A stretch of DNA of 59,598 nt from a virus. Under the pieces are notes generated by a model. The model worked only from the letters and a program-made list of their open reading frames with translations. It was not told the origin of the DNA and did no database searches. The DNA lies in the IMG/VR virus record IMGVR_UViG_3300034782_000053; one strand, written 5' to 3'. Positions 237 to 36,377 of the stretch are shown here, in pieces. The position numbers and the translations under genes are program-made. The first letter of the stretch is position 1. The number at the start of each line of letters is the position of its first letter.

Positions 237-245
237 GGATCGGGC

Positions 246-12985: not shown

Positions 12986-12987
12986 GG

Positions 12988-14549: not shown

Positions 14550-14551
14550 CG

Positions 14552-15735: not shown

Positions 15736-15744
15736 GAAACTCTC

Positions 15745-16701
15745 CTACAAATGCCAAGCGACAATTTCTCCCTCTCGATCGATCACTCGAAAACCCTCCG
15801 TCTGCTGGTTTGCTGTTCCGATGTCCGTGACGATCTCGAAATGGCGCTTCGCTGACTCCAGGTCGGGATACCAGACCGTCGTGTTGATTTCTCTGCCACC
15901 CTGCGCATGCTGGTCCCAATAGTAGTCGACGAACTCGACACCATACGGACCATCGGGATCTTTCTCCGGAACCCATGGGCGCTCTGGTAGTGGCGGGACT
16001 TGGTCTTCGAGGCCAAAGCTCGCGAGCACGTGATCCATGTCGTTTTTGTTATCCATAGTCCAGAAGTCTGGCCACATCCCTGGGGGCCTGTAGTCGTCGT
16101 CATACTCCCCCATGTCGTGCTCGGTGTAGTACAAGTCGATTACGTCGTTGGTGATCAGGGCCGATCCGCGTTTCCACTTCGCTATCGACTTATCGTTGAT
16201 AACAAGCTCGTTCTCAAAAATCTCAGGGATGTGCTGAAGACTGACATCTTCCAGTATCCGGGAAGGGTCCTCAACATGCACCGAGTGGAGAACGATGCTG
16301 ATCCCATAGCTGTCCGAAAGCGCTCCGATGATGCGAGCGATACTCCTGCTTCTGCTGTCAAAATCTTCCAGGGACTTCTTGAGGAAAGTAGTCAAGTAGT
16401 CCAGAAACTCGTCAAACTCCATGTCGTATCGTTCCGTGAACTCCTCACCGTCAAGCTCGAACGTTGTTTCGGCGCCGGTGACGCCGTCCATGAAGTCTTC
16501 CCACTGACCGTCCTTCTCCAGCAGCGCACGGAAGTCTTTCCAACCCGTCGAAAGCATCATGCATTCTGTGGGCTCATAACCCATCTCGGCGAGCGTCTCG
16601 TCTTCGGAGGCATCGTACTCGAAGATGAGCAGGTCGCCATCATCATCAATGGTGGCGTCGTATTCATTGCCGTCGCATTCAATCTTCAAATCGAAGGACA
16701 T
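15745..16701 (-). CDS. EMGY-domain family paralog 5 (318 aa)
   Basis: MSFDLKIECDGNEYDATIDDDGDLLIFEYDASEDETLAEMGYEPTEC. Confidence 0.8.
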   Translation of the reverse strand: MSFDLKIECDGNEYDATIDDDGDLLIFEYDASEDETLAEMGYEPTECMMLSTGWKDFRALLEKDGQWEDFMDGVTGAETTFELDGEEFTERYDMEFDEFLDYLTTFLKKSLEDFDSRSRSIARIIGALSDSYGISIVLHSVHVEDPSRILEDVSLQHIPEIFENELVINDKSIAKWKRGSALITNDVIDLYYTEHDMGEYDDDYRPPGMWPDFWTMDNKNDMDHVLASFGLEDQVPPLPERPWVPEKDPDGPYGVEFVDYYWDQHAQGGREINTTVWYPDLESAKRHFEIVTDIGTANQQTEGFRVIDREGEIVAWHL

Positions 16702-16702
16702 C

Positions 16703-18388
16703 TCATCGCCTCACGTAGGTTAGTAGCTCATTTATGGTCTCTCCGAGCCGCTGTGTCGCCGCCTGAAGGGGCGTAACCGTGAAGGGGTTGTAGACCTTTT
16801 CCTCTGGCCAGCCCTCGACAGCGTCGAAAACAGCGTTTGCGACGGCGATGATTACGTCGTAGGAGGAAAGCGCCGCCGCCTTGATCGGCTCAGGCATGTC
16901 TTCCTGCGCTTCGACATGAGCGCGCTTCAGCTCGGCGAGAACGACCAGCGGAGGAGCAACGTCTCGGATGTTCTCGACTGATCTCTCGACGTAGGGGAGC
17001 TGGTCCGGCGTCGGGTCGTTGAATTTCTCCTGAGTATCCCGATGCCAGCCGTACTCATACCACTTCCACACCCACATGTTGATGATGCCCAGCTCCTCTT
17101 TGAGATGGGCCACCTCGTAGACAAGGGAATACTGCCACCTCGCCCACTCGTCTTGCCCTGAGTCTCCTCGCCTGGTCAGCTTTCCGAGAGAGCCAAGGAT
17201 GCAGTGAGCAGCCTCAGCGATGTTCTGGGCGCCCAGCTCCAGCATGGTTGCGGATCCGAAGTTGCCGCCCTCAGGCATGCCGCCGTACATCTCGGTGCGG
17301 AGCGGGCATTTCCACTCTTGCGGGTTCTCGTCTGGTGATTCGCGTGATGCAAGGAGCCACTGGGTCTGCATCCACCCCTGGCCAAACTTATCGATCTGCG
17401 GGTGTTTGTGCATCTCTTCACGCCACACGCTCTCGTCGCCTACTTTCTTCCACGGGCTGGCATAGGGCGAAGAAAGATATTCCTGAACTTCGTAGGAACT
17501 CAGCTCGTCGTTTTGAATGCGCACCTCTGTGATAGTCTCTTCGTTTTCGAGCATCGCATGAGCCAGCGCCTCGATCGCCTTCAAGATCTTCACGTTAGCC
17601 TTGCGCGTCCTGTAGATGGTCTGGACCGCGTCGATGACGACGATGGGTCCGGGCTCGACCTCGACCATCTCCATACGAGTTCCGCCCGGCCTCGTTCCGC
17701 CCTCTACCTCTTCGTAGACCCCCTGAGTTCGCCAGGCCCACGCGATGGCAACGGGTTTGTTTCGCCTCTTTTCAACTTTGGAGACGAGATAGAGGCGAGC
17801 GTGGGGACTTTCTATGGTGTCCCAGGCGTATTCGGGGCGGCTCGAACCAGAAACCGACCAATCAAAGATGTCATCAAAGAAGGCGACCCGCGGGTCGATC
17901 GATTCGAGCATCTCGACGCGGTACCCATCGAAGTTGATGATAACGTCTGGCATCGTGTTGTCGAAAAAAGCGCTCCTTGCCTCCGTTACCCACAGCTCTG
18001 CAGCCTCTTCGAGTGGCATCTTCCTCTGCCCGATGTAGACGCCGTCGTCGTGCCCTCGCTCGATGGCCCGCTCGATGAAGTTTCGCCTCCAACCAAGCTC
18101 GATCAGCTCCGCGGGCTCGTCTCCCGTCCATTTTTTGCCGATTCCCTGTTGTTGAACCGCATCGTCGACGACGCGGATCATCTCGATGTCGGTGGCGATA
18201 CCATCATCTATTCCATGCTCGGTGTAGGCCCTTGTGATGCGAGCCCACAGCGGCAGCGGATAGCCCATCTCTTCGAGGACCAGCGCTTCTTCGGCGTCCT
18301 CGTCACTGAAGTCGGTCTTGCCGATCCAGCGGCCTGGAAGCAGCTCGATGCGCTTGCCATCTTCTGGCATCCTCAGGACGAGTCCCAT
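16703..18388 (-). CDS. EMGY-domain family paralog 6 (561 aa, largest member)
   Basis: MGLVLRMPEDGKRIELLPGRWIGKTDFSDEDAEEALVLEEMGYPLP. Long unique C-terminal region. Confidence 0.8.
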   Translation of the reverse strand: MGLVLRMPEDGKRIELLPGRWIGKTDFSDEDAEEALVLEEMGYPLPLWARITRAYTEHGIDDGIATDIEMIRVVDDAVQQQGIGKKWTGDEPAELIELGWRRNFIERAIERGHDDGVYIGQRKMPLEEAAELWVTEARSAFFDNTMPDVIINFDGYRVEMLESIDPRVAFFDDIFDWSVSGSSRPEYAWDTIESPHARLYLVSKVEKRRNKPVAIAWAWRTQGVYEEVEGGTRPGGTRMEMVEVEPGPIVVIDAVQTIYRTRKANVKILKAIEALAHAMLENEETITEVRIQNDELSSYEVQEYLSSPYASPWKKVGDESVWREEMHKHPQIDKFGQGWMQTQWLLASRESPDENPQEWKCPLRTEMYGGMPEGGNFGSATMLELGAQNIAEAAHCILGSLGKLTRRGDSGQDEWARWQYSLVYEVAHLKEELGIINMWVWKWYEYGWHRDTQEKFNDPTPDQLPYVERSVENIRDVAPPLVVLAELKRAHVEAQEDMPEPIKAAALSSYDVIIAVANAVFDAVEGWPEEKVYNPFTVTPLQAATQRLGETINELLTYVRR

Positions 18389-19476
18389 CAGTCCACCTCT
18401 ACCCAGAACGACTTACTTGATAACTTTGCTCCTCCAGCGCTCTTATGGCGGGTAATCTTTCGTGTTTTAGAGACAATCTCCCAGTCTGGACTCACCATAA
18501 AGATCTTGCCGGGGTCCATGTAGTCGAAGTCGTCATCAATTTCAAACACCGGAGGGGAAGGGTTTGTTTTTTTCGCACGCAACACGAATCGTACCCAGCT
18601 CCCACTACGGGGATTGACAATAAACCGATCAATGTAGTCAAGCGCTGCACGAGCAGCCTCTTCGCTGTTGTAGTAAGCGAAGAAGATTTCAAAGGGTTCA
18701 GCGATGGACACGGCCCATCGCCCGTCATGCTGTCCTTCAAGCGGAGAGTACTCCCAGCCTTGATAGACCCAGGGCTCCTCCAGCTCGCACGACCCCTTGT
18801 ATCCGCCCGTGATCCCGTTGAGCAATGCCTTCAGGTTGCGCTGCTCATCCAGCTCTTTGAAGGTAGTCTCGTCATCCAGGCCAGATGACCACTCGACGCT
18901 ATCGTTGACGAAGTCTCCCTCGTACTTGCCGTAATACCACTCATTCCAGGAGACCGCCTCTTTGCCGCCAATCTGCAGAGATGCCCGGCACTTTCCCTCC
19001 ACCAAGGAACCAGGCATTTCGGCCCCCTCCTCGATGGTCATATTTCCACCATCCTCAGGACGTATTTCAAACACTGTCGTCTGACTGACGAGCCCGCCGA
19101 GCTTCTTCAAGATGTCTCGTTGGTTTTCCCAGTCCACCTCGAAATAATTGACAATGTGAAACACCGCCTCGGTGATGTCCTCTTCCCACTCTGGACCGTA
19201 CCGCGCCTCGATCGTTTTCGGGTCCGCGTTCTCCAAGAACGAGTTGAGCCTCCCTGGGTCGACGAACAATGCAGCGAGCCCGTGTTCGTTGTAGCTCTGG
19301 ACAAGCTCTGCAATCGGCGACAGCTCGTAACCCATCTCGCCGAGTACGATCTCTTCCTCAAGCTCCTCCTGTGTGTAGCCGGCGACGTCGAGTCCTTCCT
19401 GTGAGACGTAGCAGAAGACCATCTCCGAGATGAGGTCGCTCTCGTCGATCACGAATTCGACGCCCGAGTAATTCAT
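18388..19476 (-). CDS. EMGY-domain family paralog 7 (362 aa)
   Basis: ...DVAGYTQEELEEEIVLGEMGYELSP. ATG 19476. ATGA overlap. Confidence 0.8.
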   Translation of the reverse strand: MNYSGVEFVIDESDLISEMVFCYVSQEGLDVAGYTQEELEEEIVLGEMGYELSPIAELVQSYNEHGLAALFVDPGRLNSFLENADPKTIEARYGPEWEEDITEAVFHIVNYFEVDWENQRDILKKLGGLVSQTTVFEIRPEDGGNMTIEEGAEMPGSLVEGKCRASLQIGGKEAVSWNEWYYGKYEGDFVNDSVEWSSGLDDETTFKELDEQRNLKALLNGITGGYKGSCELEEPWVYQGWEYSPLEGQHDGRWAVSIAEPFEIFFAYYNSEEAARAALDYIDRFIVNPRSGSWVRFVLRAKKTNPSPPVFEIDDDFDYMDPGKIFMVSPDWEIVSKTRKITRHKSAGGAKLSSKSFWVEVD

Positions 19477-20213
19477 CGTCCAAAGTCTCCCGTTTCCCAG
19501 GGCATCACGGACGGAAACGTCATTTGGGGGTACGGTTTGCCTTTCAACTCAGCGTCCATCACCTTGTAGATGCGTTTGATCTGCCATAGCGTTGTCTTTT
19601 TTGACCAAGATGGGAACATTGACGCGTTGATGTGGGCGTAATTCGATGCCCCGAAGACGCCTCCTCTGATTGGAAGCACACCCCCCGAGCCAACCAACCT
19701 CTGGACAGCATTGAGAGCTTGACGGACTGACATCGTGGCCCCATTACCGACCTGCTTGCCGACCAATGTCATCATCGATGTGTATCGAGATGGTTTCCCT
19801 GGATATTCGTATTCTCTGGCAAATTTTCTTTCTATTTTCTGAACCTGCGCCTTTGCATCTATGAGGGCCTGGAACGAAGCCCCTGAAACAGCTTTCTCGC
19901 GACCGATACTCACGGCTTTCCGCAGCAGCGCTGTAAGCTCATCGGGATAAAGACGGCCAAAAACAGGGATGACATACTCAGCGAAATCCAAACCGAGGAG
20001 CACGGTCAGGGTGCGTGACTGCACTATGAACTCGATCAGGAACTGCACTGGCCAATTGTCGATTAAAACGAACTTGGAAAAGCACTCGGATGGCTCATAT
20101 CCCATCTCGACGAGCGTTGCTTCTTCCTCAAAAGGATAATCAGTGAGGATCTCACCGTCGGGCTTCAGCTCGACATCGTACTCCTCCCCACCGCATTCGA
20201 CCTCGAAGATCAT
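19473..20213 (-). CDS. EMGY-domain family paralog 8 (246 aa)
   Basis: MIFEVECGGEEYDVELKPDGEILTDYPFEEEATLVEMGYEPSEC. Confidence 0.8.
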   Translation of the reverse strand: MIFEVECGGEEYDVELKPDGEILTDYPFEEEATLVEMGYEPSECFSKFVLIDNWPVQFLIEFIVQSRTLTVLLGLDFAEYVIPVFGRLYPDELTALLRKAVSIGREKAVSGASFQALIDAKAQVQKIERKFAREYEYPGKPSRYTSMMTLVGKQVGNGATMSVRQALNAVQRLVGSGGVLPIRGGVFGASNYAHINASMFPSWSKKTTLWQIKRIYKVMDAELKGKPYPQMTFPSVMPWETGDFGR

Positions 20214-21361
20214 TCATCCTCCAATAGAGCCCACTCATCCATCCAGTCTGGACGGTCAAGAATTTCCTCCTCGAACAGTGACTCCTGTCGCGCCCGAAAT
20301 TCTTCCTCCTCTATCTCCTCGTCAGTCTTCTTGCGCAGCAGCGCGATGTCATACTTCTTCTGTTCACCGTCGCGCCTGATGATCGCCTCGGAAAGCCACA
20401 CTGCGTCTCTCGCTTCGTGAAGCTCGTTATAGGCAACGACGACCTCCTCATCGACGCCAAGGCGAACGTCGCCCTCACCTGAAACCCACTTCGTGTCGTA
20501 GATGGTGTAGAGGACACCGTAGTCCGCCAGAAATTCGTCATCGGCCGGCGTGGGGTGGTCTGGTTCTTCGACCTCCTCCTCTTCAGGACCGGGCTCTTCC
20601 AGTCCAAGGCCATTGAGAGCATCTGACAACCCCTGACCAATGGTGTGTCCAGCGGCGTCATACTCTTCCCAGTCAGTGGCTTCGCTATAAAAGTGAATAG
20701 GATCGAAGATTCGCTTCTCGATCGCCCGCTTCCAACTAGCGATATCTTCATTGTCAACAACAAGGGTGTACTCGCAATCGAGCCGGCTTTCCCAGTCCTC
20801 AAGTCCGTAGGCGTGGAAGCACGAGGACTCTATGCGAGCGCCCTCTTCAAGCCTCGTCGAAAGCAGGCTGGCAAGCTCTTCAGCATAGACGCCATCGAAG
20901 CCGTGTTTTCCAGCCTCTTGCTTCAGCCGCTCGATCAGCAGTTCCTTGAATCGGTCCTCACCAATCACAGAGACGATCAAGTCTTCGACATCTCGTTTGC
21001 CCTTGAGCTGCTGCTCGATGAGCACGCTGAACAGTTTTTCTGCTTTGAACTCTGGGCCGTACTCTTCAATGCCCTGCTCTTCGATAGCATCGGCTAGGGC
21101 ATCTGCCCAATCGTCGTCATAGACGCCGTGCAGGAGAAGGTTCTTGAGCGCAGTGACGGGACCACCCTCCGCACCTTCCGTGAACGCCTGGTAGAACTCG
21201 AACGGCTCGTCCTCGACTTCGTAGCCCATCTCATTGAGGGTGAGCGCATTTTCGATATCGTAGCCGCGGACTTCGATGGTACCGTCCGCTGAAATATCGA
21301 TCTCGACGTCGATATCTTCTCCGTCTTCTTCCTCGAAGGGCAATATGATTGTCAGTGGCAT
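20210..21361 (-). CDS. EMGY-domain family paralog 9 (383 aa, strongly acidic C-terminal half)
   Basis: ...RGYDIENALTLNEMGYEVED. C-terminal region similar to paralogs 10 and 14. Confidence 0.8.
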   Translation of the reverse strand: MPLTIILPFEEEDGEDIDVEIDISADGTIEVRGYDIENALTLNEMGYEVEDEPFEFYQAFTEGAEGGPVTALKNLLLHGVYDDDWADALADAIEEQGIEEYGPEFKAEKLFSVLIEQQLKGKRDVEDLIVSVIGEDRFKELLIERLKQEAGKHGFDGVYAEELASLLSTRLEEGARIESSCFHAYGLEDWESRLDCEYTLVVDNEDIASWKRAIEKRIFDPIHFYSEATDWEEYDAAGHTIGQGLSDALNGLGLEEPGPEEEEVEEPDHPTPADDEFLADYGVLYTIYDTKWVSGEGDVRLGVDEEVVVAYNELHEARDAVWLSEAIIRRDGEQKKYDIALLRKKTDEEIEEEEFRARQESLFEEEILDRPDWMDEWALLEDE

Positions 21362-21364
21362 CTG

Positions 21365-22495
21365 CTAATCCTCGTCCTCCAGTATGACCCAGTCTTTGGT
21401 CCATTCCGGAGGCTCCTCGAACTCGAAAAGAACACCCTGTCTTTCCAGCAATTCATCCTCGCGACGCTCATCTGCGGACTTTTCTCTTACCAGCCACATC
21501 GCACGGATTGGGGAGTCGCCTTCATGTTCGACAATCGTCTCCGAAAGTTCCTTCGCCTCGGTGGCATGGAATAGCGTGTCATACGGAACGACCGTGTATT
21601 CAACGGGTGCGTCAGGCTTCCATCCCGCTGGGTCAATCTCGTAGAGCACCCCGTGCCAAGGATGGGGATCTTTGGCTGTCGCCTTCATGGGATAATCGGG
21701 CGGCTCTGGGTCTTCCAGCTCAGGCTCGTCAAGGCCAAGCTCATTCAGCACACCGCTGACGTTATCGGGCAGCTTCGCTTCTTCGATGCCCCACTCCTCG
21801 CCCCAGTCAACGACCTCCCCGTTGAATCCGACGGGGTCATATATCCTGAATTCAAGGGTGCGAGACCAGCACGCAACCTCGATGTCCGAGATGACAAGAC
21901 AGTAGCGAGCATCGAGGATGTTGTTCCATGACATGACATTCGGATCGTAGACGTCGCGATAGCCCTGATGACGAACCTCGACCTCCATGTGGTCTGGTTC
22001 GACGAGGTAGGGCTCAAGCATCTGCGCGACCTCGCCCGATTCACCTTTTCCGTAAAATCTCTTCCCTGCCTGCTCCTCAGCGATGCGATCCTTGAGCAGG
22101 AGGATGCCTTGCCTCACGTATTCGTCTTCGCCAAGGATCGCGTAGTGAGCTTCTTGTGCATCCCAGTCGGACTCGTCGGAATCGGTCCCCTCGAAGAACC
22201 GCTTGAAGAGAATCTTGGAGACGAGCTGTGCTGTTTGTTCAGCCGTGAGCTTGGTCCTCGGCCTCACCTTCTTGAGCGCGTCGAAAAAATCTTTCTCGTA
22301 CTTCTCTAGCGCCCTGACGATTCCAAGAACCGGCGAGGTTTCGTAGCCCATCTCTTCGAGGACGATAGCTTCTTCCAGATCGAAATCGCCCACGTCCAGG
22401 GTGCGATCCATGAGGTAGTGCACCTCGACGGGAACCACTTCCTCGTTGTCTTCGTCCCAAAGGTTCAGGGTCAGAGTTGCGTGGATGGGAGACAT
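21365..22495 (-). CDS. EMGY-domain family paralog 10 (376 aa, acidic)
   Basis: Internal ATG 22495 adjacent to the upstream stop. ...GDFDLEEAIVLEEMGYETSP. Confidence 0.8.
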   Translation of the reverse strand: MSPIHATLTLNLWDEDNEEVVPVEVHYLMDRTLDVGDFDLEEAIVLEEMGYETSPVLGIVRALEKYEKDFFDALKKVRPRTKLTAEQTAQLVSKILFKRFFEGTDSDESDWDAQEAHYAILGEDEYVRQGILLLKDRIAEEQAGKRFYGKGESGEVAQMLEPYLVEPDHMEVEVRHQGYRDVYDPNVMSWNNILDARYCLVISDIEVACWSRTLEFRIYDPVGFNGEVVDWGEEWGIEEAKLPDNVSGVLNELGLDEPELEDPEPPDYPMKATAKDPHPWHGVLYEIDPAGWKPDAPVEYTVVPYDTLFHATEAKELSETIVEHEGDSPIRAMWLVREKSADERREDELLERQGVLFEFEEPPEWTKDWVILEDED

Positions 22496-22497
22496 GG

Positions 22498-23541
22498 CTA
22501 TCCGCTCCTGATTTCGTAATAGTAGTACATGTCGTCGTAGTTGATGTCGTCTTCCTCGGGGTTCCACTCATCCGGGTCGATCGCCATCAGCTCGATCTCG
22601 GCCCCCTGAGACTTGTAGTCCTTGGCATCGCGCAGGGCGTCGAAAAGAAACTCCGCGTCCTCCTGGCCCCAACATGTCATCACGCGTTCTCCATCGACAA
22701 AAACAGAGAAGTAGCCCTTGTCCTCGTTGCAGTAGGGAAGCCACGGCTCTTCCAGGTCAAGGTAGTCTTCGAAGTCTGTATTCTCCCCCATGACTTCGAG
22801 CAGGTGAGCGGCGTTGTCGCTGAGGCTCATTGAGTTTTCGCACTCATCCACGTCCCAGCCAAGACCGACAAGATCGTTGAACCATCCTTCAAAGCAGACG
22901 TTGATGTCCTCTACTATCTCATCAGCGACATGAAGCTCAACCAGCAGCTCAGCCTTGATGTGTCCGGCGCCTTTTTCGTACTTCGGAGTTCCAAACTCCA
23001 ACCGGTAAAGGGTCGAGTTCGTCGCGGGGTCTAGCCTCTTTATGAAATCAATATCCTCCTGCTCGTAAGCGGACGATACCAGCTCCATCTCTCGATCGAG
23101 GTATCCTCTGGTTTGAAAAAACTCTGGCCACTTGTCCTTGATGATTTCGAGGATGACATCGTTATCCATCTCGCTACGAATATTGGTCATCGCAACTTCT
23201 TGAACCAAAAAATCCATCAACACCTCGGCAAAGTCTTCATCGTCGACCGGATACTCATCACCGAGTGTTTCAACACCCTGATCGTAGATTGCTTCCATAA
23301 ATGGCTCGAATCGACCTTGCTTTTTGAAGATGCTGACGATGCCGCCCTTCTCAACGCTGATTTTGAAACCGATACAGTCGGGAAGGTCGTAGCCCATCTC
23401 GTCGAGCACGATATGCTCTTCGACATCGATCTCCGGAGGAAGCTCGACGAGCATCTCACCTGTTCTGGTGTCGGCTGTGATGTGCACGATGACGTTGCCC
23501 TCGTCATACAGCTCGCAGGGTATTGTGACCTTCAGCGCCAT
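22498..23541 (-). CDS. EMGY-domain family paralog 11 (347 aa)
   Basis: MALKVTIPCELYDEGNVIVHI...EIDVEEHIVLDEMGYDLPDC. Close duplicate of paralog 12. Confidence 0.8.
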   Translation of the reverse strand: MALKVTIPCELYDEGNVIVHITADTRTGEMLVELPPEIDVEEHIVLDEMGYDLPDCIGFKISVEKGGIVSIFKKQGRFEPFMEAIYDQGVETLGDEYPVDDEDFAEVLMDFLVQEVAMTNIRSEMDNDVILEIIKDKWPEFFQTRGYLDREMELVSSAYEQEDIDFIKRLDPATNSTLYRLEFGTPKYEKGAGHIKAELLVELHVADEIVEDINVCFEGWFNDLVGLGWDVDECENSMSLSDNAAHLLEVMGENTDFEDYLDLEEPWLPYCNEDKGYFSVFVDGERVMTCWGQEDAEFLFDALRDAKDYKSQGAEIELMAIDPDEWNPEEDDINYDDMYYYYEIRSG

Positions 23542-23543
23542 GA

Positions 23544-24590
23544 CTACGACCTCATCGTGAAGTAGTTACCTGGATCGTCGAGGTCGATGTCGTCCTCTTC
23601 AGGATCTAGCTCGTCGTCGAGTTCCATCAAAGCAATGGAGTCATGCTTGTTCTGCACGTCCCTTGAATCTTCGAGGGCGTCAAAGAGGTTGTCAGCATCG
23701 CTGTAGTCGTCAAACGTCGCGACCCTTACATCGTTAACGAAAACCGAATATCGGCCCTCACCCTCATCGTAGGGGACATCAGGTTCGTAAAGACGAAACT
23801 CGGACTCGAAGTCCGTTCCTTCTCCCATAGTGTCGAGAAAATCTTCGGCCGTCGCCGTGGGCTCCCCGTGCTCGTCGCACTGCTCGACTTCCCAATCGAG
23901 CATTTCGAGGTCTACGTATCCGAGATAACAAACGTCCCACTCATCTACGGTCTCCTCACCGACTGTCAGTGTGACGAACCCCATGACCTTCGCATGTCCT
24001 GGGCCGTCCGAAGACGACGTCTCTTGTACGTTCACCTCGTATAGCGTCGACTGGGTGACCTCATCGAGCTTTTTGATGAAGTCATGCTCCTCATTCTCGT
24101 AGGCGAGCCGAACCAGCTCCATCTCCTTGTCATGGTAGGCGTTTGTCTTGAAGAACCCCTCCCAGTGTTCTTTGATGATCTCAACAACCAGCTCGAAGTC
24201 CATGTCCGTCTTGACGTCCGAGCCATGGGCCATCGCATCTACGAGAAGAATAGCTAATGCACCAGCGACAGCTTCTTCGTCGACCTCCCAGGTCTCCTTG
24301 TCTCCGATTGCCTGCGGTCCCTGCGCCTCGATGGCCTCGAAGAATGCCTGGAAGTACTCCTCTTTGGAAAAGATGTTTCTGAGACCATGACCCTTCTCGA
24401 CGTCCACCTTGAACTGGACGCAGTCGGGGAGATCGTAGCCCATCTCGGCGAGGGTGAGGTGCTCATCCACGTCGATCTCTTCTGGCAGTTCGACGAGAAA
24501 TGAGTTGCTGTAGGGGTCATCGAGAGAGACAATCGCTTCGACCTCGCCTTCTTCGACCAGCTCACAGGGAATCTTGACTCTCAGCGCCAT
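23544..24590 (-). CDS. EMGY-domain family paralog 12 (348 aa)
   Basis: MALRVKIPCELVEEGEVEAIV...EIDVDEHLTLAEMGYDLPDC. Confidence 0.8.
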   Translation of the reverse strand: MALRVKIPCELVEEGEVEAIVSLDDPYSNSFLVELPEEIDVDEHLTLAEMGYDLPDCVQFKVDVEKGHGLRNIFSKEEYFQAFFEAIEAQGPQAIGDKETWEVDEEAVAGALAILLVDAMAHGSDVKTDMDFELVVEIIKEHWEGFFKTNAYHDKEMELVRLAYENEEHDFIKKLDEVTQSTLYEVNVQETSSSDGPGHAKVMGFVTLTVGEETVDEWDVCYLGYVDLEMLDWEVEQCDEHGEPTATAEDFLDTMGEGTDFESEFRLYEPDVPYDEGEGRYSVFVNDVRVATFDDYSDADNLFDALEDSRDVQNKHDSIALMELDDELDPEEDDIDLDDPGNYFTMRS

Positions 24591-24602
24591 GGTTCTTCTC
24601 CC

Positions 24603-25328
24603 TCAGTCAGAAAAATCTTCTTCCAGTTGCTGCTCTTCGAGCAGCTCGATGAGCCGGCTCGCCTGCCAGGCGTTTTCTCTAGTCCCTGCTTTCGTTCGAT
24701 CTTTACCCTGAAAATCAGCCTTTTCCTGAACTGCCCCGACACACTTTCCCAGTACATCCTTTATGCGCCTCTCATATTTTGACTGTGCGCCGCGAGGAAA
24801 ATACCAGGGGCGAATATGAAAAAGACGGGCCATTCTGATGAGGTCGAGTGCCGCGTTACAGGCCGCTTTCGCTGCCCTATCGTCGTCTTTGGATCCTCGT
24901 CTCCAAGCATCTGCCGCCGCATCATCGCATGCTATGACGAGATCGGACTCAAGCTCGTCAATCTCTTCCTCGTCAACATGTTCGCCGCTTAGAACAGCCT
25001 TAACCATCCCAATAATTTGCTGGGGCTCATCGCGCTTTGGATGAACCGCTGCCCAGCAAGGGATGACTCGCTCCAATTGCTCCACTCCAATCCGAAGCAA
25101 CAAATCAGCATCGAGCCCAGAATCAATGAGGTTAATGACGAGGACCGCTGGCTGGTCTTGCATGACACGCTTGAGGTTGAGGCAAGGATGGACATTGTAG
25201 CCCATCTCTTCGAGGACAATGGCCTCTTCCTCATCAAAATCAAGGATGGTGATATCGAGGCCGCGAGTGATCTCGAACTCTTTGGACCTTCCCTCGTAGT
25301 CGCAGAATATTTCAAGGACCACGCTCAT
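24603..25328 (-). CDS. EMGY-domain family paralog 13 (241 aa)
   Basis: MSVVLEIFCDYEGRSKEFEITRGLDITILDFDEEEAIVLEEMGYNVHPC. Confidence 0.8.
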   Translation of the reverse strand: MSVVLEIFCDYEGRSKEFEITRGLDITILDFDEEEAIVLEEMGYNVHPCLNLKRVMQDQPAVLVINLIDSGLDADLLLRIGVEQLERVIPCWAAVHPKRDEPQQIIGMVKAVLSGEHVDEEEIDELESDLVIACDDAAADAWRRGSKDDDRAAKAACNAALDLIRMARLFHIRPWYFPRGAQSKYERRIKDVLGKCVGAVQEKADFQGKDRTKAGTRENAWQASRLIELLEEQQLEEDFSD

Positions 25329-25330
25329 GC

Positions 25331-26410
25331 TCAGCCCTCAAAATCCTCAGGACGATCTTGCCAGTTCTCTTCCAGGGGGCGCCACTCCAGATAGATGGGA
25401 TCGGGCTCTTCGACCTCCTGGGTAGCGCCACCGTTGAAAAGCCTGTACTGACGTCTCAGCGCGGCACGGTCTTTGGCCTCTTCGATGTCCTCGGCCTCTT
25501 CAGAAGGAGTACGACGCCGCACAAGAGACACCTCTACACTGTCTCCTGTTTCTCCTATCATCTTTTGCGCCAGTGCAGCCGCTTCGCTTGCGTCGCTTTC
25601 TCTGGCGTAAATGACGACCTCGACCTCAACCTCGGGTTCTTCGAGCTTCCCCTTGGTCGGATGCCAATAGGTCATCTCTTCGTACATCACCCCGAATAGC
25701 TCGTCGCTGTCTTCGTCTTCTGGCCTGGGAACGTAAAGATCGTCTTCGTCTGGCCCCTCTGGCTCTTCATCTTCAAGACCAAGCGCTTCAAGAACTTCTG
25801 TGAGCCCTTCGACCATTTCAGGGCCAATCTCAAGCCCAGCTTCTCTGAGGTCTGTCAGATCCGAATCAAAATACTTGTAGCTGTACGACGACCTCTCAAC
25901 AGCGTGCTCCCACTGAGCAATTTCCTCTCCGTCGATCATCAGCCGATGTGTCTCGTATCGAACCACTCGCGGATACCCGAATTGGTCTTCGCTGAGATGC
26001 GACTCTACCGTTATCTCTGGCATATCATTCAGGGACCACGGCATCTCCTTGATGACGCTGGCGACCGCAACGGCGTCGTCCGTGTATTCCTTGTTCATGT
26101 AGTGCTGAAGAGCGAGGACAAGGGCACTCTTGACATCATCGATGTCGAACGGCCACAGGCTTCGTCCGACGTAATAATCGTACTGGGTGCGTTTTCCCTG
26201 AAGCGCTTCGATGAAATCATCGAGCTGCCCTTCTTCCTTGAGGGCCTGGAGAACGAGGTCCCACGACTTAACAATCCAATAGTCGAGTCCCAGCTCATAG
26301 CCCATCTCGGCAAGGACAGCTTGCTCCTCCGGGTCATAGCCAGGGACTTCGAGACTTCCGTCGTCATGAATTATCGCGTCGAAGTCGCCGATTTTTATTT
26401 CGTAGGCCAT
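25331..26410 (-). CDS. EMGY-domain family paralog 14 (359 aa, acidic C-terminal)
   Basis: ATG 26410 (TGATG overlap). MAYEIKIGDFDAIIHDDGSLEVPGYDPEEQAVLAEMGYELG. Confidence 0.8.
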   Translation of the reverse strand: MAYEIKIGDFDAIIHDDGSLEVPGYDPEEQAVLAEMGYELGLDYWIVKSWDLVLQALKEEGQLDDFIEALQGKRTQYDYYVGRSLWPFDIDDVKSALVLALQHYMNKEYTDDAVAVASVIKEMPWSLNDMPEITVESHLSEDQFGYPRVVRYETHRLMIDGEEIAQWEHAVERSSYSYKYFDSDLTDLREAGLEIGPEMVEGLTEVLEALGLEDEEPEGPDEDDLYVPRPEDEDSDELFGVMYEEMTYWHPTKGKLEEPEVEVEVVIYARESDASEAAALAQKMIGETGDSVEVSLVRRRTPSEEAEDIEEAKDRAALRRQYRLFNGGATQEVEEPDPIYLEWRPLEENWQDRPEDFEG

Positions 26411-27177
26411 CACAGCTCATCCTTATGCGCTTGGGTTACACGGGAAGTAATGCGAAGGAGATCAGAGACTACAAAGAACACGGCCACCGATAACTCATCA
26501 CCCCCCAGCGCTTCCTGACGACCGGAATACAGCGCGACATGAAGAGCTTCGGTTATAGACCGCCTCGCGTTTTTGTAGAAGGCCTCGACGTTATAGGCCC
26601 CAGCCCAAAGATCCCCAACACAGCGCAGCATGTAATCCAGGGACGATACAGCGTTATTCTCCACCACCTCATTGTCACGGATACGAGCGATGTCGTAGTA
26701 CGCCGCAATCGTGTGATGCAGGTCATCGAAGTCCTCGTCGTCATCCGGGTCCATATACCTGTGCTCTTTGGTCACCATGTCCAGGAACGACTCGGACCTG
26801 TCAACAAATACTTCAGGCGTTATCTCGAAATCATCGAAGCTTCCGCTCCCCTTGGAACGATAGGTGGAGACAGTAAAGGTGTAGTTCTCTGGCGGCAGTG
26901 CTGGGATTGACCAGGAACGCGCCAGCTCAATCAGGAAACGCGCGACGACCTCCGGAGACCAGATTTCCGAGGTCGTAAACGCCTCAATGAAGTGCCGATC
27001 GCCAAGCATCCCCACGAACCTCGAACACTGGCTCCCTGGTTCGTAGCCCATCTCGACCAGGACTCGGTCTTCCGCGATTTCCTCATCTCCATGATCGGCG
27101 AAAACGTAGATGTCCCTTGCACCCTCAACATCGACCCTGTGGACCTCATCACCATCCTGGAGATAGAAGGTGTCCAT
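26410..27177 (-). CDS. EMGY-domain family paralog 15 (255 aa)
   Basis: ...FADHGDEEIAEDRVLVEMGYEPGSQC. Confidence 0.8.
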   Translation of the reverse strand: MDTFYLQDGDEVHRVDVEGARDIYVFADHGDEEIAEDRVLVEMGYEPGSQCSRFVGMLGDRHFIEAFTTSEIWSPEVVARFLIELARSWSIPALPPENYTFTVSTYRSKGSGSFDDFEITPEVFVDRSESFLDMVTKEHRYMDPDDDEDFDDLHHTIAAYYDIARIRDNEVVENNAVSSLDYMLRCVGDLWAGAYNVEAFYKNARRSITEALHVALYSGRQEALGGDELSVAVFFVVSDLLRITSRVTQAHKDEL

Positions 27178-27179
27178 GG

Positions 27180-28025
27180 CTATGAATGCCTCCGTTCAAG
27201 AACCTGGACGAACTGACCGATGAGCTGCCGGCGCGTCTCATAGGAAAAGTCAGCCGCTTCTGACTTCGTGGCTCCGTCCAGTGCGGCCTCGTAGATGGCG
27301 GCGAGGCCGATATACTTCTGGATCTCCTCGAAATTTGAGTGTGCTCTTTCGAGTCGGGCATCGTTGTCATTTCTGATCATCTGACCAAGGGCGAAGAGCG
27401 CACTGGCGGCATAGAACCTGGCCTTGAGGACAAATTGTGGGTAGCGTGAGTAGTCCGTCTTCCAAGGAATATCGTTCTTCTCTGATTGCTCAAAGTTTGC
27501 GTCGCTGACCGCGCGCCCCATAAACCTGTTGTGCTTTTCGAGGTCTCTCTTCGCCTTTCTGTCGTCGGTTCCGAGGTCTGGATCGAAATCGTACAGCTCT
27601 CCGTAGATCTCCTTGAGCCCCTCAACCCACTCCACTGGGTCGACCTGGTAGTAATCCGGCTCATCTTCGCCACCGCGGAAGTAAGAGGCTATTGGGTGCG
27701 CGACGACAAACGGTGGGCTTCCGATCTTCTTGAGAATGGTGAGCGCTCGCTTCACCCAAATGAAGCCGGTTTCTGCCTTGATGTCGTACCAAGGCCCCGA
27801 CGTCCAGTATTCGTTGTCCTCCCACCTGAATAGCGCGAACAGTGTTTTAAACGGATTGGTCTGCCACTTGAGATAGGTTTTTGCACAGAGGTCAGGCTCG
27901 TAACCCATCTCGACGAGAACAAGCGCGTCTTCGATGTCGAACTCCTCAAAGACGAGGTCTCCAGATCCTGTCACCTCCACGTTCTGAATCTCGCCGTCGC
28001 ACTCTATCTTCAGCAGAATGCCCAT
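27180..28025 (-). CDS. EMGY-domain family paralog 16 (281 aa)
   Basis: MGILLKIECDGEIQNVEVTGSGDLVFEEFDIEDALVLVEMGYEPDLC. Confidence 0.8.
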   Translation of the reverse strand: MGILLKIECDGEIQNVEVTGSGDLVFEEFDIEDALVLVEMGYEPDLCAKTYLKWQTNPFKTLFALFRWEDNEYWTSGPWYDIKAETGFIWVKRALTILKKIGSPPFVVAHPIASYFRGGEDEPDYYQVDPVEWVEGLKEIYGELYDFDPDLGTDDRKAKRDLEKHNRFMGRAVSDANFEQSEKNDIPWKTDYSRYPQFVLKARFYAASALFALGQMIRNDNDARLERAHSNFEEIQKYIGLAAIYEAALDGATKSEAADFSYETRRQLIGQFVQVLERRHS

Positions 28026-28789
28026 CAGCCGTGCCTTTCGAGAACCCTGAGCGCTGCGAGCGCCAGCTTCTGATTCACCTCATCGATCTCCTCCTGGATC
28101 ATCCAGACTGACTCGGTGAATATTTTGTGATCTGATTCAAATGGGTGGCGATGCGATGCGACCGTTGGATAGTGGATGACTATGGATTGCATTGCTGCTT
28201 TTGCCACCTCGCAGGGGAGCTGTAGCGGAGTTTGAAGACCGCCCACCATTTCGATCTCGTTGACATACTCGGCAATCACCGATGCACAACCGAGAACTGC
28301 ATCGAGCGTCCTCTCACCTGCAAAAGGTGGGCGCCAGTTCGACCCCGCAAAGCTCTCTCGCCTCTTGTTGACATAGGCGTTCCAGCAATCAAATACCTGC
28401 TGTTTCGCCGAGTAGACTCGCTTGAGCGGCATTCCCCTCTTCGCGGACCAAAAACGTCGACACGCTCCGAGGAGAGATTTCATTTGCTTGACGCATCCGA
28501 TGCTCTGGTTGAGCAACGCCTCGTTTCGCGCTAATGCCTCGGCAGCCCATTGACAGGTGACGAAGCCGAGGAGGTTTGTCGGAATGATGTCAGAGCGACA
28601 GAGAAAATCGATCGGCGCCCTCTCCCACTCCCTCAGTATTTCAAGGCACAGAGGCGTCTCGTAGCCCATCTCTTCAAGGACAACATCTTGCTCGATGTCG
28701 TAGTCGACAAAAACCATCTCACCATCGCTCGTAATTTCGATGGTGGCGAGACCATCCTCTTCGCAGGGGAGCTGCAGGAAGATACTCAT
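28025..28789 (-). CDS. EMGY-domain family paralog 17 (254 aa)
   Basis: MSIFLQLPCEEDGLATIEITSDGEMVFVDYDIEQDVVLEEMGYETPLC. Confidence 0.8.
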   Translation of the reverse strand: MSIFLQLPCEEDGLATIEITSDGEMVFVDYDIEQDVVLEEMGYETPLCLEILREWERAPIDFLCRSDIIPTNLLGFVTCQWAAEALARNEALLNQSIGCVKQMKSLLGACRRFWSAKRGMPLKRVYSAKQQVFDCWNAYVNKRRESFAGSNWRPPFAGERTLDAVLGCASVIAEYVNEIEMVGGLQTPLQLPCEVAKAAMQSIVIHYPTVASHRHPFESDHKIFTESVWMIQEEIDEVNQKLALAALRVLERHG

Positions 28790-29526
28790 TCCTCATCCTC
28801 CTGGTCAGAAAAATAGTCGAGAATGTAGTCGAGCTGCCATTGGTACTCGTTGCCGTAAGCTTTCTGGTCTCGCTCAGCCATACCCTGCTGCGTCGCTGAC
28901 TGCCTTGTATAAGACGCTGTGTCCTGCGAAAACTTCCGCACAAGCACGGGAGCTGGCCCGGCGAGCTGTGTATGTCCGTAGAGGTGAGCATGAAGAGCCT
29001 TCATCGCCTCTCGGACGGCAGTGGCGATCAGCTCATCGCTGTAGGCGATTCTGAAAGCCTTGTCTGCTTCAGAAACATCCTTGCGATGCTCGGCGAGTTT
29101 TACCTCCCCCCTTGCTCTTTCAAGCAAGCGATAAGCCTGTGAAGCCCTCGTTATATTTCCGGACATCATAATGATGTCTCTCAAAGCGAGTCTTTTTTCA
29201 GGAGAGTCCGAAAAATAGTCTTTTCCGTGATACCTCCCGAATCTCTCGATCGCATGGTCCGCTATGCCAATCGCCAACAGCACCCTATCCGCCTCAGGAA
29301 TGAGCAACGCCTCATTACTGAGAAGAGCCTTGACGGGCTCATCCTCGAACTCTCGGACGAGACTAAGGCAGTCCGACGCTGGATACCCCATCTCTTCGAG
29401 CGCGATGTCTTCTTCGAGGTCGTAGTCGAGGGTCAAATCGCCGTCATCGTCGACTTGGGCATCGACGATTTGGTCGTCGCATCGGGCAGCAAGTACGAAG
29501 GACACGAGTTCACCCCCATCGCTCAC
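28786..29526 (-). CDS. EMGY-domain family paralog 18 (246 aa)
   Basis: GTG start 29526 in a GTGA overlap with the VWA gene stop. ...LDYDLEEDIALEEMGYPASDC. Confidence 0.75.
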   Translation of the reverse strand: MSDGGELVSFVLAARCDDQIVDAQVDDDGDLTLDYDLEEDIALEEMGYPASDCLSLVREFEDEPVKALLSNEALLIPEADRVLLAIGIADHAIERFGRYHGKDYFSDSPEKRLALRDIIMMSGNITRASQAYRLLERARGEVKLAEHRKDVSEADKAFRIAYSDELIATAVREAMKALHAHLYGHTQLAGPAPVLVRKFSQDTASYTRQSATQQGMAERDQKAYGNEYQWQLDYILDYFSDQEDEE

Positions 29527-31256
29527 TTGCCAGAGGTGATGTAGATGACATCACCGAACGGTGGTATTCCGCCCCACCTCTCCATCTGCGCCTCATCGCT
29601 TCCGACGATACCGATAACAACCCGCATGTTGGGCGGCGGAGAGTCGGGCCAGAGAGTGCCACCGTCCGTCAGGACTACCATGATGTTCGGGCGGGGCTGC
29701 GAATGATAGGCAGCGTTCATCCCAACTGTCAGGTCTGTTCCGCCGCCGATCTTTGCCTCACTCAGATACTTCTGAATGTCAGACGGGTTAAAAATCCGAC
29801 CAGTCCACGAGACCGTCGTGTCCGTCGCGAAGACACTGACACCTATCGTCGAACCGAACTGCCTGACAATTTCTGCAACTTCTCCCATCGCCTGTTCGAG
29901 GAGCGTGTAATTCCCCTTCGCCTTGGCGCTGCCATCGTTGAACGCGGCGAACATCGAGGCGGAGACATCGATGATGATTGCCACCTCAGGCACAGGGTGA
30001 ACGAGGCCTGGGAGTAGAATGTCTTTCTGGTGCCATTGGCGCCGGCTCACGCGACGGCGAGAGAACTCGAAAGAACCTGCCACAAAGTTGATAGCGTTCG
30101 AGACAGCGCTTCGGAGCTGCTGCTGCCAATTCACCGCAGATGGCGAAAGCTCTTCTTCGGCCCACTGAACTATTGTCGAGCCCACGCCCGTTCCACGACC
30201 CGTAGCTGACTCCTCGATGACCTTGTCGGCCGTTTTTTTTCGGATGAAGTCCTCTTGCGATCGATCAACGAAGTCGTCGGGCTCATCCTCCCAGGGAGCC
30301 GGGATACCAGTTGCGGATGAACCACAATCGCCCTCTCCGACATGCGGCGTGGAGCTAGGCTCACCACCTGTGGTCTGCCCCTGCTCGACCTGCTCTCCCT
30401 CGTCGTACTTGTCTTCAGCGCTCTTACCTTCGCCTTCGCCTTCACCTTCGCCTTCTTCGAAATCACCTTCGCCCTCTACCGGCTGACCTCTCTCTCCTAC
30501 GCCTTCTTCTCCTTCTTGAGGCAGGCGAGGATCGTAAATGACATAAGGAGGTTTCGTCCCTGGAGGCCGCTCTCCTGTCCAGGGTTCTTCGTACTCATAG
30601 ACAATAACCGGATCCGGCGGAGGACCAACTGGCGGCGGCTCGTCTTCTTCTCCTTCTTGCGGCGGCTCGGGAGGCGGTTCTTTCCCAGGCTTCTTCACCT
30701 TGATGATGGTTCGCTTGTACACCTTGACGTCGCCGTCAGGCGTCTCACCGAAGACATCGCCCTTTGGAGCTTCGAGGAGCATTTCGTAATACTCCTCCGC
30801 CAGCAGCCCCTTTTCGAAGTTGAAGCTCTCTGGAGTGATCGGCTCGAATCCAGGAATCTCTTTGAGCCGTTTCACGAGCGTATCGTCAGAATGGATCTCC
30901 GCGTCTGCCGCGAAGTTCCAGACCTTCGCCAGATCGCGGGGCACGTTCAGTTTTCGGGCGCGCTCTCCGTGACGACGGAGCAGGTGCCACAGCTCATGCT
31001 CCATGACAGCCGCGCCAGCTTCGACACCTGCCCTGTCCAAAAACTCATCGTTGAAGTACATCCGCCAGCTCGAATCGACAGCCGCTGTCGGGATGCTTTT
31101 GTCGTGCACCATGCGAAGCGTCATCGCTGCTGTCGCGAGATAGGGCCGCTGCGATGCCCTGAGCAGAAAAAGGCGCGCTGCCCGCACCAGCTCATATGGG
31201 TCACCAGGGTTTCGCCCCCTTCGAGGCCTTCCTGGGTTGATCATTCGAATCGTCAT
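29523..31256 (-). CDS. VWA-domain protein with N-terminal HExxH metallopeptidase-like domain (DUF2201-type MoxR partner) and a Pro/Glu-rich linker
   Basis: MEHELWHLLRRH (HExxH). C-terminal VWA with MIDAS IIIDVSASM (DxSxS). Low-complexity linker PPPEPPQEGEEDEPPP...VIVYEYEEPW...GEGEGEGEG. Translationally coupled on both sides. Confidence 0.8.
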   Translation of the reverse strand: MTIRMINPGRPRRGRNPGDPYELVRAARLFLLRASQRPYLATAAMTLRMVHDKSIPTAAVDSSWRMYFNDEFLDRAGVEAGAAVMEHELWHLLRRHGERARKLNVPRDLAKVWNFAADAEIHSDDTLVKRLKEIPGFEPITPESFNFEKGLLAEEYYEMLLEAPKGDVFGETPDGDVKVYKRTIIKVKKPGKEPPPEPPQEGEEDEPPPVGPPPDPVIVYEYEEPWTGERPPGTKPPYVIYDPRLPQEGEEGVGERGQPVEGEGDFEEGEGEGEGEGKSAEDKYDEGEQVEQGQTTGGEPSSTPHVGEGDCGSSATGIPAPWEDEPDDFVDRSQEDFIRKKTADKVIEESATGRGTGVGSTIVQWAEEELSPSAVNWQQQLRSAVSNAINFVAGSFEFSRRRVSRRQWHQKDILLPGLVHPVPEVAIIIDVSASMFAAFNDGSAKAKGNYTLLEQAMGEVAEIVRQFGSTIGVSVFATDTTVSWTGRIFNPSDIQKYLSEAKIGGGTDLTVGMNAAYHSQPRPNIMVVLTDGGTLWPDSPPPNMRVVIGIVGSDEAQMERWGGIPPFGDVIYITSGK

Positions 31257-31993: not shown

Positions 31994-31995
31994 CC

Positions 31996-35036: not shown

Positions 35037-35047
35037 GAGTCCTCCGG

Positions 35048-35587: not shown

Positions 35588-35589
35588 GG

Positions 35590-36117: not shown

Positions 36118-36377
36118 CTCGACCTCAGGATGTAGCCGATGACCATCCCCGTGATGGCTCCCCACGCCACGAGATCGCATCGTCTCCGCACGTACCACGG
36201 GCGCTGGCTTTCTCGCACCCGGGCCAGCTCTTGATTTGCGACTGCCTGCGCCGGATGCTGATGCAGCGCCGCCTCTTGCTGACCTATGACGACAGCGTAT
36301 TGCTCCACGAACGGTTCGAGCGTCGCCGGGTCTGAGAGCGGCATCTGGTTCGGCATATTGGCGTCAGGGCTCTGCAT
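36114..36377 (-). CDS. small protein with C-terminal hydrophobic anchor (87 aa)
   Basis: ATG 36377. C-terminal LVAWGAITGMVIGYILRSR. Confidence 0.55.
   Translation of the reverse strand: MQSPDANMPNQMPLSDPATLEPFVEQYAVVIGQQEAALHQHPAQAVANQELARVRESQRPWYVRRRCDLVAWGAITGMVIGYILRSR

Follow-up and report, generated by a model that had tools for sequence, protein, structure and literature searches.

The sequence analysed here is the 59,598-nucleotide stretch of the IMG/VR virus record IMGVR_UViG_3300034782_000053 (hereafter the window), and its subject is a long minus-strand array of paralogous genes, together with the MoxR-type AAA+ ATPase genes and the DUF2201/VWA gene that the array includes (Table 1). 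By a six-frame motif scan and a profile search, 21 open reading frames (ORFs) on the minus strand between 12179 and 36198 were found to begin with a common module of ~45-60 aa, which we call the N-module. The initial annotation of the window had already proposed that such a module is shared among paralogs, and this was borne out, the module being N-terminal in all 21; it had further described five of the paralogs as carrying extremely acidic C-terminal modules, and had read them as a diversified arsenal of DNA mimics or other anti-defence effectors. The window consensus of the N-module is C..DG.L...YD.EE..L.EMGY...C, in which L, E, G, and Y are invariant, and the bodies of the window paralogs diverge after it. 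Genes in the window are dense, co-directional, and of bacterial type, with Shine-Dalgarno (SD) sequences and 4-nt overlaps, and no excess of promoter- or terminator-like sites was found inside the array.

The two tandem MoxR genes and the DUF2201/VWA gene are located within the array. The Walker A (GAPGIGKT and GPPGIGKS) and Walker B (VLFLDE) motifs of the ATPases are intact, with matches to AAA_5/AAA, and the DUF2201/VWA_2 match of the third protein includes DVSAS. Between its HExxH and VWA domains, this last protein has a long insert rich in Pro, Glu, and Gly (residues ~165-330; EPPPEPPQEGEEDEPPP..., EGEGEGEGEGK), which is presumably disordered. Both MoxR proteins have an N-terminal extension of ~120-165 aa with the Gly-rich hydrophobic segments WWFWVGIGVGVGAGIYFV and WLFWVGIGLGVGGALYLL, possible membrane anchors; an extension of ~100-150 aa is found at array-bearing loci, and most other MoxR proteins checked are without it. 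MoxR matches the phage family phrog_1297 (E = 1.7e-42) and DUF2201 matches phrog_1314 (E = 5e-36), and distant homologs of the two occur in N4-like and other phages and in actinobacterial replicons. The upstream MoxR copy also contains three GAIQPSEAQLF repeats, which in the DNA appear as a tandem repeat of 42 nt (34853-34946). Small ORFs upstream of MoxR in a related locus, L010 (5249-5829), the MoxR of that locus, and the window product of 33456-35036 have common M(S/Y)EY... starts and share Gly/Pro/Ala-rich repeats, such as GAIQPS and GPGDIAALPPTIG. In another locus, L014, the peptidase and VWA parts are apparently split into two genes.

The association of these genes with the array is not confined to the window. 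A metagenome scan with a DUF2201 alignment gave 80 loci, and MoxR was upstream of DUF2201, mostly directly, in the great majority of those that extend far enough (about 60 of the 80). N-module genes (E <= 1e-5) were confined to L015-L020 and L037, loci that rank among the nearest DUF2201 relatives (37-55% identity), and to one isolated match in L040; several short contigs with comparable best-segment DUF2201 identity had no N-module genes. The order MoxR, DUF2201, N-module array, and opposite-strand methyltransferase is shared by the window, L010 (a 100.7-kb contig), and L014 (a 269.6-kb contig), the N6_N4 methyltransferase closing the arrays of the latter two at L010:18670-19359 and L014:16328-17119. 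In five loci (the window, at 31253-31993, L018, L019, L020, and L037), an N-module gene is also placed between MoxR and DUF2201, and its conserved position suggests that it is a dedicated core partner, separate from the array downstream. By gene content and order, the array is tightly linked to one MoxR–DUF2201 clade, and this linkage recurs in every close relative examined. It was absent from the initial annotation, and it is the strongest clue at the locus and a more informative finding than the acidity of the gene products.

The paralog family itself is, as far as sequence searches go, previously undescribed. It is rare, since an exhaustive HMMER profile search of 1.84 billion proteins returned 95 representatives. 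The module is N-terminal in essentially all 95, with two in which it is internal, in very long proteins, and it has no Pfam or PDB counterpart. All members that were looked up lie on metagenomic contigs, the longest of about 270 kb, and carry no informative name. Among 92 representatives, the body domains were ankyrin (23/92), Imm5_like (4/92), and DUF5983_C (4/92). The Imm5_like cut-off of 25 bits was passed only by P0083 (39.5 bits, E = 6.3e-10), with P0041, P0094, and P0061 just below it (23.4-24.8 bits); the window product of 24603-25328 matched Imm5 with E = 3.7e-4 and 21.1 bits, also under the cut-off, and none of the five acidic proteins matched an Imm family in a Pfam scan. In the wider family, near-invariance is limited to the D and G of the module, and the E is not universal. 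Two roles considered for conserved residues were rejected: L-x-E is not a family-wide protease site, as it is not conserved outside the lineage of the window, and a conserved Cys/His zinc site is not supported, as the His is kept only in the ankyrin subgroup and several window paralogs have no Cys.

Variants of the family were seen both in the window and elsewhere. At L012:500-20100 (ENA ERZ27256796, a 143.6-kb contig), there are ~29 consecutive N-module genes, most of them fused to ankyrin repeats, with the module variant C.G..H.IG...DG.L.LLDHDIEEEE.L..MG...SEC; the C, H, H, and C invariant in this subgroup might form a metal site. Short-class members (19473-20213 on the minus strand, and P0010, P0041, P0066, P0083, and P0094) end in WQ(I/V)(R/K)RF(V/I)D.MEA....PWPPLE, a motif equivalent to the C-terminal part of Pfam Imm5_like, of which the window copy, LWQIKRIYKVMDAELKGKPYPQM, is too diverged for Pfam detection. 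A third body type, of ~175-200 aa and ending in ...PLPGFPEFE(W/Y), is present as a tandem duplicate at the array head, directly upstream of MoxR (35048-35587 and 35590-36198, minus strand), and has relatives on other contigs (P0001, P0006, P0023, P0031, and P0064). Also within the array are a 140-aa gene without the N-module (15313-15735, minus strand) and a 561-aa N-module paralog with a large extra body (16703-18388, minus strand), which is distantly similar to an 875-aa protein in L015.

The interval 20210-26410, to which the initial annotation was devoted, comprises six minus-strand genes: the five acidic paralogs (A1, A2, B1, B2, and A3) and one shorter paralog. In an hmmsearch restricted to the window and a few related loci, the five matched the family profile over residues ~2-94 with E = 1.8e-13 to 3e-20, scores that are partly circular because the profile was built from sequences including these same proteins. 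For A2, the ATG at 22495, which gives 376 aa and matches public gene calls, was preferred over the GTG at 22567 of the mechanical ORF. Their extreme acidity was confirmed by computing charge and isoelectric point (pI). The five have 23-28% Asp plus Glu (D+E) and 6-9% Lys plus Arg (K+R), with a net charge of -55 to -75 (-0.15 to -0.21 per residue) and a pI of 4.05-4.4; relative to 31 non-family window ORFs (12.8 ± 2.6% D+E), this corresponds to z = 3.9-5.7 (Mann-Whitney p = 2e-4). The five also lie above the remaining 16 paralogs, whose mean is 18.6% D+E (p = 7e-4), and all 21 are acidic (pI 4.05-5.45). Halophile-type proteome bias was ruled out by the non-family products, whose pI runs from ~4.2 to 10.7, with about two-thirds between 5 and 10, at the D+E content given above. 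An origin of the acidic stretches in DNA slippage or low complexity was also discarded, only trivial repeats being present; the sole tandem repeat of note under them is a 6-nt x3 array (score 33) at 25615-25634.

The distribution of this charge is not quite as had been described. All the peptide strings quoted in the initial annotation were found on the minus strand, EEPGPEEEEVEEPDHPTPADDEF in the product of 20210-21361 and EDPEPPDYPMKATAKDPHPW in that of 21365-22495, and so were the termini ...LLEDE, ...ILEDED, and ...PEDFEG. The long runs of D/E, however, had been overstated, the longest unbroken run being of four residues and the densest 20-aa window holding 9-12 acidic residues. Instead of being collected in a separate C-terminal module, the charge is spread along the whole chain, every segment being net negative, N-module included, and it is highest in an interdomain strap within the protein (28-42% D+E) and over the final ~20-30 residues (38-48%).

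At the C-termini, EDE, EDED, and DFEG arise from codons that make up the SD-like GGAGGA/GAGG cores of the downstream gene. The last codons read TTG GAG GAT GAA in A1, CTG GAG GAC GAG GAT for EDED, and GAG GAT TTT GAG GGC for DFEG; those of A1 hold the GGAGGA core of the gene that follows with a 4-nt overlap, and the final codons of A3 likewise contain the SD-like core of the gene after it. Such cores are within the last 2-6 codons of the upstream gene at 20 of the 24 array junctions (12179-36198), and they bias the C-termini to E, D, G, and R (LEDE, LEDED, EDFEG, QEDEE, FEED, and GGLR). Close gene packing is therefore, at least in part, the source of the residues at the extreme C-termini.

Together with the products of 15745-16701 and 18388-19476, the five acidic proteins form a long class with one common architecture: after the N-module, a helical region, a β-sheet with L.V...I..W, an LGLE-P strap, a small α/β domain, and an acidic tail. 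The products starting at 20210, 21365, and 25331 make up subfamily A, and those at 22498 and 23544, which are 45% identical, subfamily B; profile-profile comparison (hhalign) showed the two to be homologous over 286 columns (probability 96.9%, E = 1.4e-10). In BLAST alignments, orthologs of each acidic subfamily were detected in L010, L014, L015-L018, and L020 at 23-40% identity, and the database relatives P0097 and P0098 reach 67% and 47%. These orthologs are as acidic (21-27% D+E, pI 4.05-4.5), and over all loci the long-class ORFs average 21.4% D+E vs. 16.6% for the short class (p = 3e-6). An alignment of ten sequences with 17-68% identity has 32 columns in which 70% or more of the residues are acidic; the strap holds eight of them (nine counting position 201), beside an invariant Pro, and both the acidic and the Pro positions of the A3 strap show conservation over 10 sequences. 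In the tail, the motif W..LE...DRP(E/D)DFE(G/D) is also kept in orthologs from other elements. The effectors had been called diversified, and here the initial annotation did not hold: the acidic proteins belong to conserved orthologous subfamilies in at least seven elements, with their acidity kept. Judged from these alignments, they are the conserved core of the array, rather than a fast-diversifying accessory set.

The fold of the long class was approached through A3, for which an AlphaFold2 model was built from a 14-row alignment of window paralogs and database homologs (mean predicted local distance difference test score, pLDDT, 79.1; predicted template-modelling score, pTM, 0.68). A single-sequence AlphaFold model of A1 was unusable (pLDDT 40.8). 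According to the A3 model, the long-class proteins are folded and multidomain α/β, with an ordered Pro/Asp/Glu strap and a disordered acidic tail (Table 1). No structural neighbours of the model were found in PDB or BFVD, and the JGI label of A3, "ketosteroid isomerase-like protein", is unreliable, as only insignificant NTF2-like matches (E 0.2-0.7) were obtained with Foldseek. At the sequence level, the five acidic proteins had nothing significant in Pfam, PHROGs, PADLOC, or NCBIfam, and PDB sequence searches, both single-sequence and profile, gave 0 matches. A word-indexed homolog search with the A1 sequence likewise returned nothing, A1 itself included. None of the five matched the Ocr family in the Pfam-A scan (E up to 1) or in the PDB sequence searches, and neither sequence nor fold matched ArdA. 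Structure prediction had been suggested in the initial annotation as a check on DNA-like charge arrays; the model shows a folded multidomain α/β protein, and no fold relation to Ocr or ArdA was found.

Table 1. Features of the paralog array and of its acidic long-class products; positions are window nucleotides unless given as residues.
Feature	Position	Strand	Details
Co-directional array: 21 N-module paralogs, MoxR and VWA genes	12179..36198	-	gaps -4 to +17 nt
N6_N4 DNA methyltransferase	11485..12231	+	closes array from opposite strand
A1, long-class paralog	20210..21361	-	383 aa; D+E 107 (27.9%), K+R 32, net -75, pI 4.07
A1 N-module	residues ~4-62		LNEMGY at 42-47
A1 acidic Pro-rich interdomain strap	20531..20599	-	EEPGPEEEEVEEPDHPTPADDEF; residues 255-277
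A1 acidic C-terminal helix and tail	20213..20323	-	DEEIEEEEFRARQESLFEEEILDRPDWMDEWALLEDE
A2, long-class paralog	21365..22495	-	376 aa; D+E 90, K+R 35
A2 strap	21656-21715	-	EDPEPPDYPMKATAKDPHPW; residues 261-280
A2 tail	21368-21424	-	...WVILEDED
B1, long-class paralog	22498..23541	-	347 aa; D+E 87 (25.1%), K+R 24, net -63
B1 acidic tail	22501-22578	-	DPDEWNPEEDDINYDD...
B2, long-class paralog	23544..24590	-	348 aa; D+E 95 (27.3%), K+R 21, net -74
B2 tail	23547-23618	-	DDELDPEEDDIDLDD...
Short-class paralog, helical Imm5-like body	24603..25328	-	241 aa; not among the five acidic proteins
A3, long-class paralog (modelled protein)	25331..26410	-	359 aa; D+E 92 (25.6%), K+R 30
A3 strap	25691..25780	-	GLEDEEPEGPDEDDLYVPRPEDEDSDELFG; residues 211-240; modelled as coil, block-mean pLDDT ~81-86
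A3 tail	25334..25417	-	EVEEPDPIYLEWRPLEENWQDRPEDFEG
A3 model: N-module	residues 1-41		β-hairpin and helix
A3 model: helical bundle	residues 42-122		
A3 model: β-sheet	residues 132-187		
A3 model: coil strap	residues ~188-238		carries GLEDEEPEGPDEDDLYVPRPEDEDSDE segment; block-mean pLDDT 73-92
A3 model: β-β-α-β unit	residues 239-299		
A3 model: long helix	residues 302-326		
A3 model: low-confidence/disordered C-terminal region	residues 328-334 and 348-359		pLDDT < 50; acidic tail 348-359
DUF2201_N and DUF2201/VWA protein	29523..31256	-	577 aa; HELWH at 87, DVSAS, resembling a metal-ion-dependent adhesion site (MIDAS), at 430
N-module paralog between MoxR and VWA genes	31253..31993	-	
Two tandem MoxR-type AAA+ ATPase genes	31996-33459 and 33456-35036	-	52% identical

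In one JGI assembly (3300035191), the window sequence is found on contigs 1 and 2, its largest, which measure 165.6 kb and 113 kb and put the element at a minimum of 278 kb. Neighbouring genes include NUDIX, glycosyltransferase, radical-SAM, and methyltransferase genes, and a same-strand cluster of glycosyltransferase, radical-SAM, methyltransferase, and sulfotransferase-like genes extends over 56731-59191 and beyond (L006:1-8461), which is possibly a module of the element for modifying glycans or nucleic acids. Scans against Pfam and/or PHROGs covered about 25 of the ~37 other window ORFs, each in one or two libraries, and brought up no hallmark virion gene (capsid, portal, terminase, or protease). 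No tRNA genes were found, and a tblastn search of 50,697 phage records gave no match to two large neighbouring proteins. The element is most aptly described as large and either phage-like or extrachromosomal.

Among known systems, the locus is close to the MoxR–vWA "ternary" conflict systems, in which a third component has been described (Kaur et al. 2020, PMC7159879). In MoxR–vWA systems, both characterised and predicted, the VWA partner captures a peptide of the substrate, after which the captured protein is remodelled by MoxR (PMC7159879). Adjacent MoxR AAA+ and VWA/MIDAS genes with a conserved third component are common to both, and the pairs compared, RavA–ViaA, CbbQ–CbbO, and BchI–BchD, share with the locus an acidic Pro-rich region of the VWA protein. 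The differences lie in the third component, which here is an array of 7-21 N-module paralogs (~29 in the unlinked L012), in the VWA protein, which is of the DUF2201 type with HExxH, in the hydrophobic N-terminal extension of MoxR, and in the phage-like or extrachromosomal setting. No VMAP, iSTAND, FtsH, or β-propeller third component was found, and bpMoxR scored only 18.4 bits against a cut-off of 27. MIDAS sites, as in integrin-I/VWA domains, coordinate an acidic side chain of the ligand.

Because VWA domains capture peptides, MoxR proteins remodel what is bound, and MIDAS sites take an acidic ligand, we consider it most likely, although tentatively, that the N-module is a common handle for the MoxR–VWA machine and that the variable bodies are binder or inhibitor modules. 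The MoxR–VWA(–peptidase) machine would engage each paralog through its N-module, by docking, remodelling, or cleavage, and the bodies (ankyrin, Imm5-like, or of the acidic long class) would target proteins of the host or of competitors. The long class would use its acidic surfaces to bind basic partners; where these are nucleic-acid-binding proteins of the host, as is possible, the resemblance to a mimic would be one of effect only. Alternatively, the acidic ligand for the MIDAS site of the VWA protein or for the AAA+ pore may be provided by the strap or the tail. The arsenal with a shared N-module that was originally proposed may still be read as one of binders or inhibitors, which is compatible with the ankyrin and Imm5_like domains of the family; the five acidic proteins in it are not diversified.

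Two other groups of systems resemble the array in its bodies. The immunity proteins of nuclease toxins are in many cases acidic. Polymorphic toxin systems have Imm5 and Imm-ank among their classes of immunity proteins (Zhang et al. 2012, PMC3482391), and poly-immunity loci resemble the array in their tandem, diverse small binders and in the Imm5_like or ankyrin bodies. The five acidic proteins, however, match no Imm family, and the arrays are located behind a MoxR–VWA pair, on large mobile elements. Where the array was scanned against domain libraries, no toxin genes turned up, and an extra N-terminal module like the N-module is not known from immunity proteins. Large sets of tandem paralogs with ankyrin bodies and one short constant domain also occur as the ANK/PRANC proteins of poxviruses and the ankyrin arrays of giant viruses and symbiont phages; here, in contrast, the constant domain is N-terminal and unrelated, the genes are of bacterial type, and the docking partner suspected from gene order is the MoxR–VWA pair.

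Several observations weigh against the handle interpretation. The link between the paralogs and the MoxR–VWA pair is one of synteny, and two loci depart from it. The 20.6-kb L012 locus examined, which includes at most 10 kb of flank and which the array fills almost to both ends, contains neither a MoxR nor a VWA gene, and L013, a solitary N-module member, is also without them. In being conserved and orthologous, the acidic subfamilies look less like an anti-defence arsenal with fast turnover than like components of a core or an assembly pathway, and the alignment behind the A3 model, with its 14 rows, is shallow. The other window ORFs scanned were nearly all without a match, the exceptions being DUF4026_C (3528-4475), a sub-threshold Sulfotransfer_3, and the methyltransferase; no relative was found in 185,579 GTDB species genomes, and IMG/VR yielded nothing related apart from one distant DUF2201.

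It is also conceivable, although somewhat unlikely, that acidity is a non-specific trait of the family, serving solubility or cation binding or acting as an acidic linker, in proteins that take part in an unrelated MoxR–VWA-dependent process. Acidity is indeed common to all 21 paralogs, at a mean of 18.6% D+E even in the 16 outside the five, and the N-module is itself acidic; the DUF2201 protein has its own long acidic Pro/Glu/Gly-rich insert, and the SD-encoded terminal EDE, EDED, and DFEG reinforce the acidity of the C-termini. There is a precedent in BchD, the VWA subunit of Mg-chelatase, which has acidic Pro-rich linkers. Against a trait of this kind, the acidity of the long class significantly exceeds that of the short class in many loci, and the acidic positions of the strap are conserved column by column at 17-68% identity, which argues for selection on specific residues rather than on composition alone.

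Phages such as T4 and the phiKZ-like ones have paralogous internal head proteins with N-terminal targeting sequences. In the T4 type, these proteins are packaged in the virion and bear a short N-terminal targeting peptide, which the prohead protease removes at an L/I-x-E motif. On this precedent, the long-class proteins may serve a huge phage as scaffold-like or ejection proteins or as internal components of its virion; the N-module would then direct packaging or targeting, or be a propeptide, and the MoxR–VWA pair would chaperone assembly. The paralogs are similarly acidic or charged and share an N-terminal region, the L-x-E of LxEMGY, invariant in the window, resembles the protease motif, acidic orthologous sets are conserved in every related element, and both MoxR and DUF2201 match phage families (phrog_1297 and phrog_1314). 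The N-module, however, appears to be a folded domain of ~60 aa, not a cleavage site, since conservation and the confident part of the model run through and past EMGY, and the motif does not extend to the wider family, where the D and G alone approach invariance. The partner domains are ankyrin and Imm5-like binders instead of structural folds, the neighbours (methyltransferase, NUDIX, and glycosyltransferases) include none that is recognisably structural, and the scanned ORFs yielded no protease or head genes, capsid, portal, and terminase included. We therefore hold a role inside the virion to be unlikely.

DNA mimicry of the Ocr or ArdA type, as first proposed for the acidic proteins, is the least probable of these explanations. 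Known DNA mimics are about 90-170 aa long, so that the 347-383 aa found here are about three times their size. Ocr (T7 gp0.3) is an elongated helical dimer of ~116-aa chains whose surface carboxylates trace bent B-DNA. It has 34 acidic and 6 basic residues in 116 aa by the counts given in PMC4872106; on those counts, its 29% D+E, 5% K+R, and charge of -0.24 per residue compare with 23-28%, 6-9%, and -0.15 to -0.21 in the five proteins. The charge density thus lies in the range of Ocr, and it is accompanied by encoding on a mobile element, by acidity conserved across orthologs, and by an orphan DNA methyltransferase that closes the array and fits a concern with restriction, although it could equally be an independent anti-restriction device. 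For mimicry itself, the argument is one of composition, and extreme acidity is a necessary but not a specific property of DNA mimics. Relation to Ocr or ArdA in sequence, fold, or size was not borne out: there is no link to solved structures and no Pfam match in libraries presumed to include the known mimics, although, because DNA mimics share no common fold, the missing fold match is weak evidence. The predicted multidomain α/β fold retains 21-35 basic residues, the modelled charge peaks lie in a coil strap and a disordered tail instead of on a rigid rod-like surface, and the proteins belong to a 21-member family that shares an N-module and is linked to MoxR–VWA.

If the N-module is a handle for the MoxR–VWA machine, a broader, speculative, and on balance unlikely extension is that a lineage of large, uncultivated phage-like elements possesses an AAA+ (MoxR) and VWA–Zn-peptidase machine, possibly membrane-anchored, with interchangeable adaptors that capture host proteins. 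Each adaptor would combine the constant N-module handle with a variable binder, and the captured host proteins, which would include defence or nucleic-acid-binding factors, would be remodelled, sequestered, or cleaved. The adaptor array would then be a prokaryotic viral counterpart of substrate-receptor arrays such as the poxviral ANK/F-box proteins, in which the acidic long-class proteins would be the conserved core receptors for basic targets. As the conserved core of the array, these proteins are the best experimental entry point. Should they prove to be merely ordinary acidic assembly proteins, the finding would be of local interest only. If the linkage is functional, it would represent a new type of third component for MoxR–VWA systems and a new way for large mobile elements to deploy many binders through one ATP-driven machine, and it would provide a function for the widespread, uncharacterised phage MoxR/DUF2201 pair (phrog_1297 and phrog_1314).

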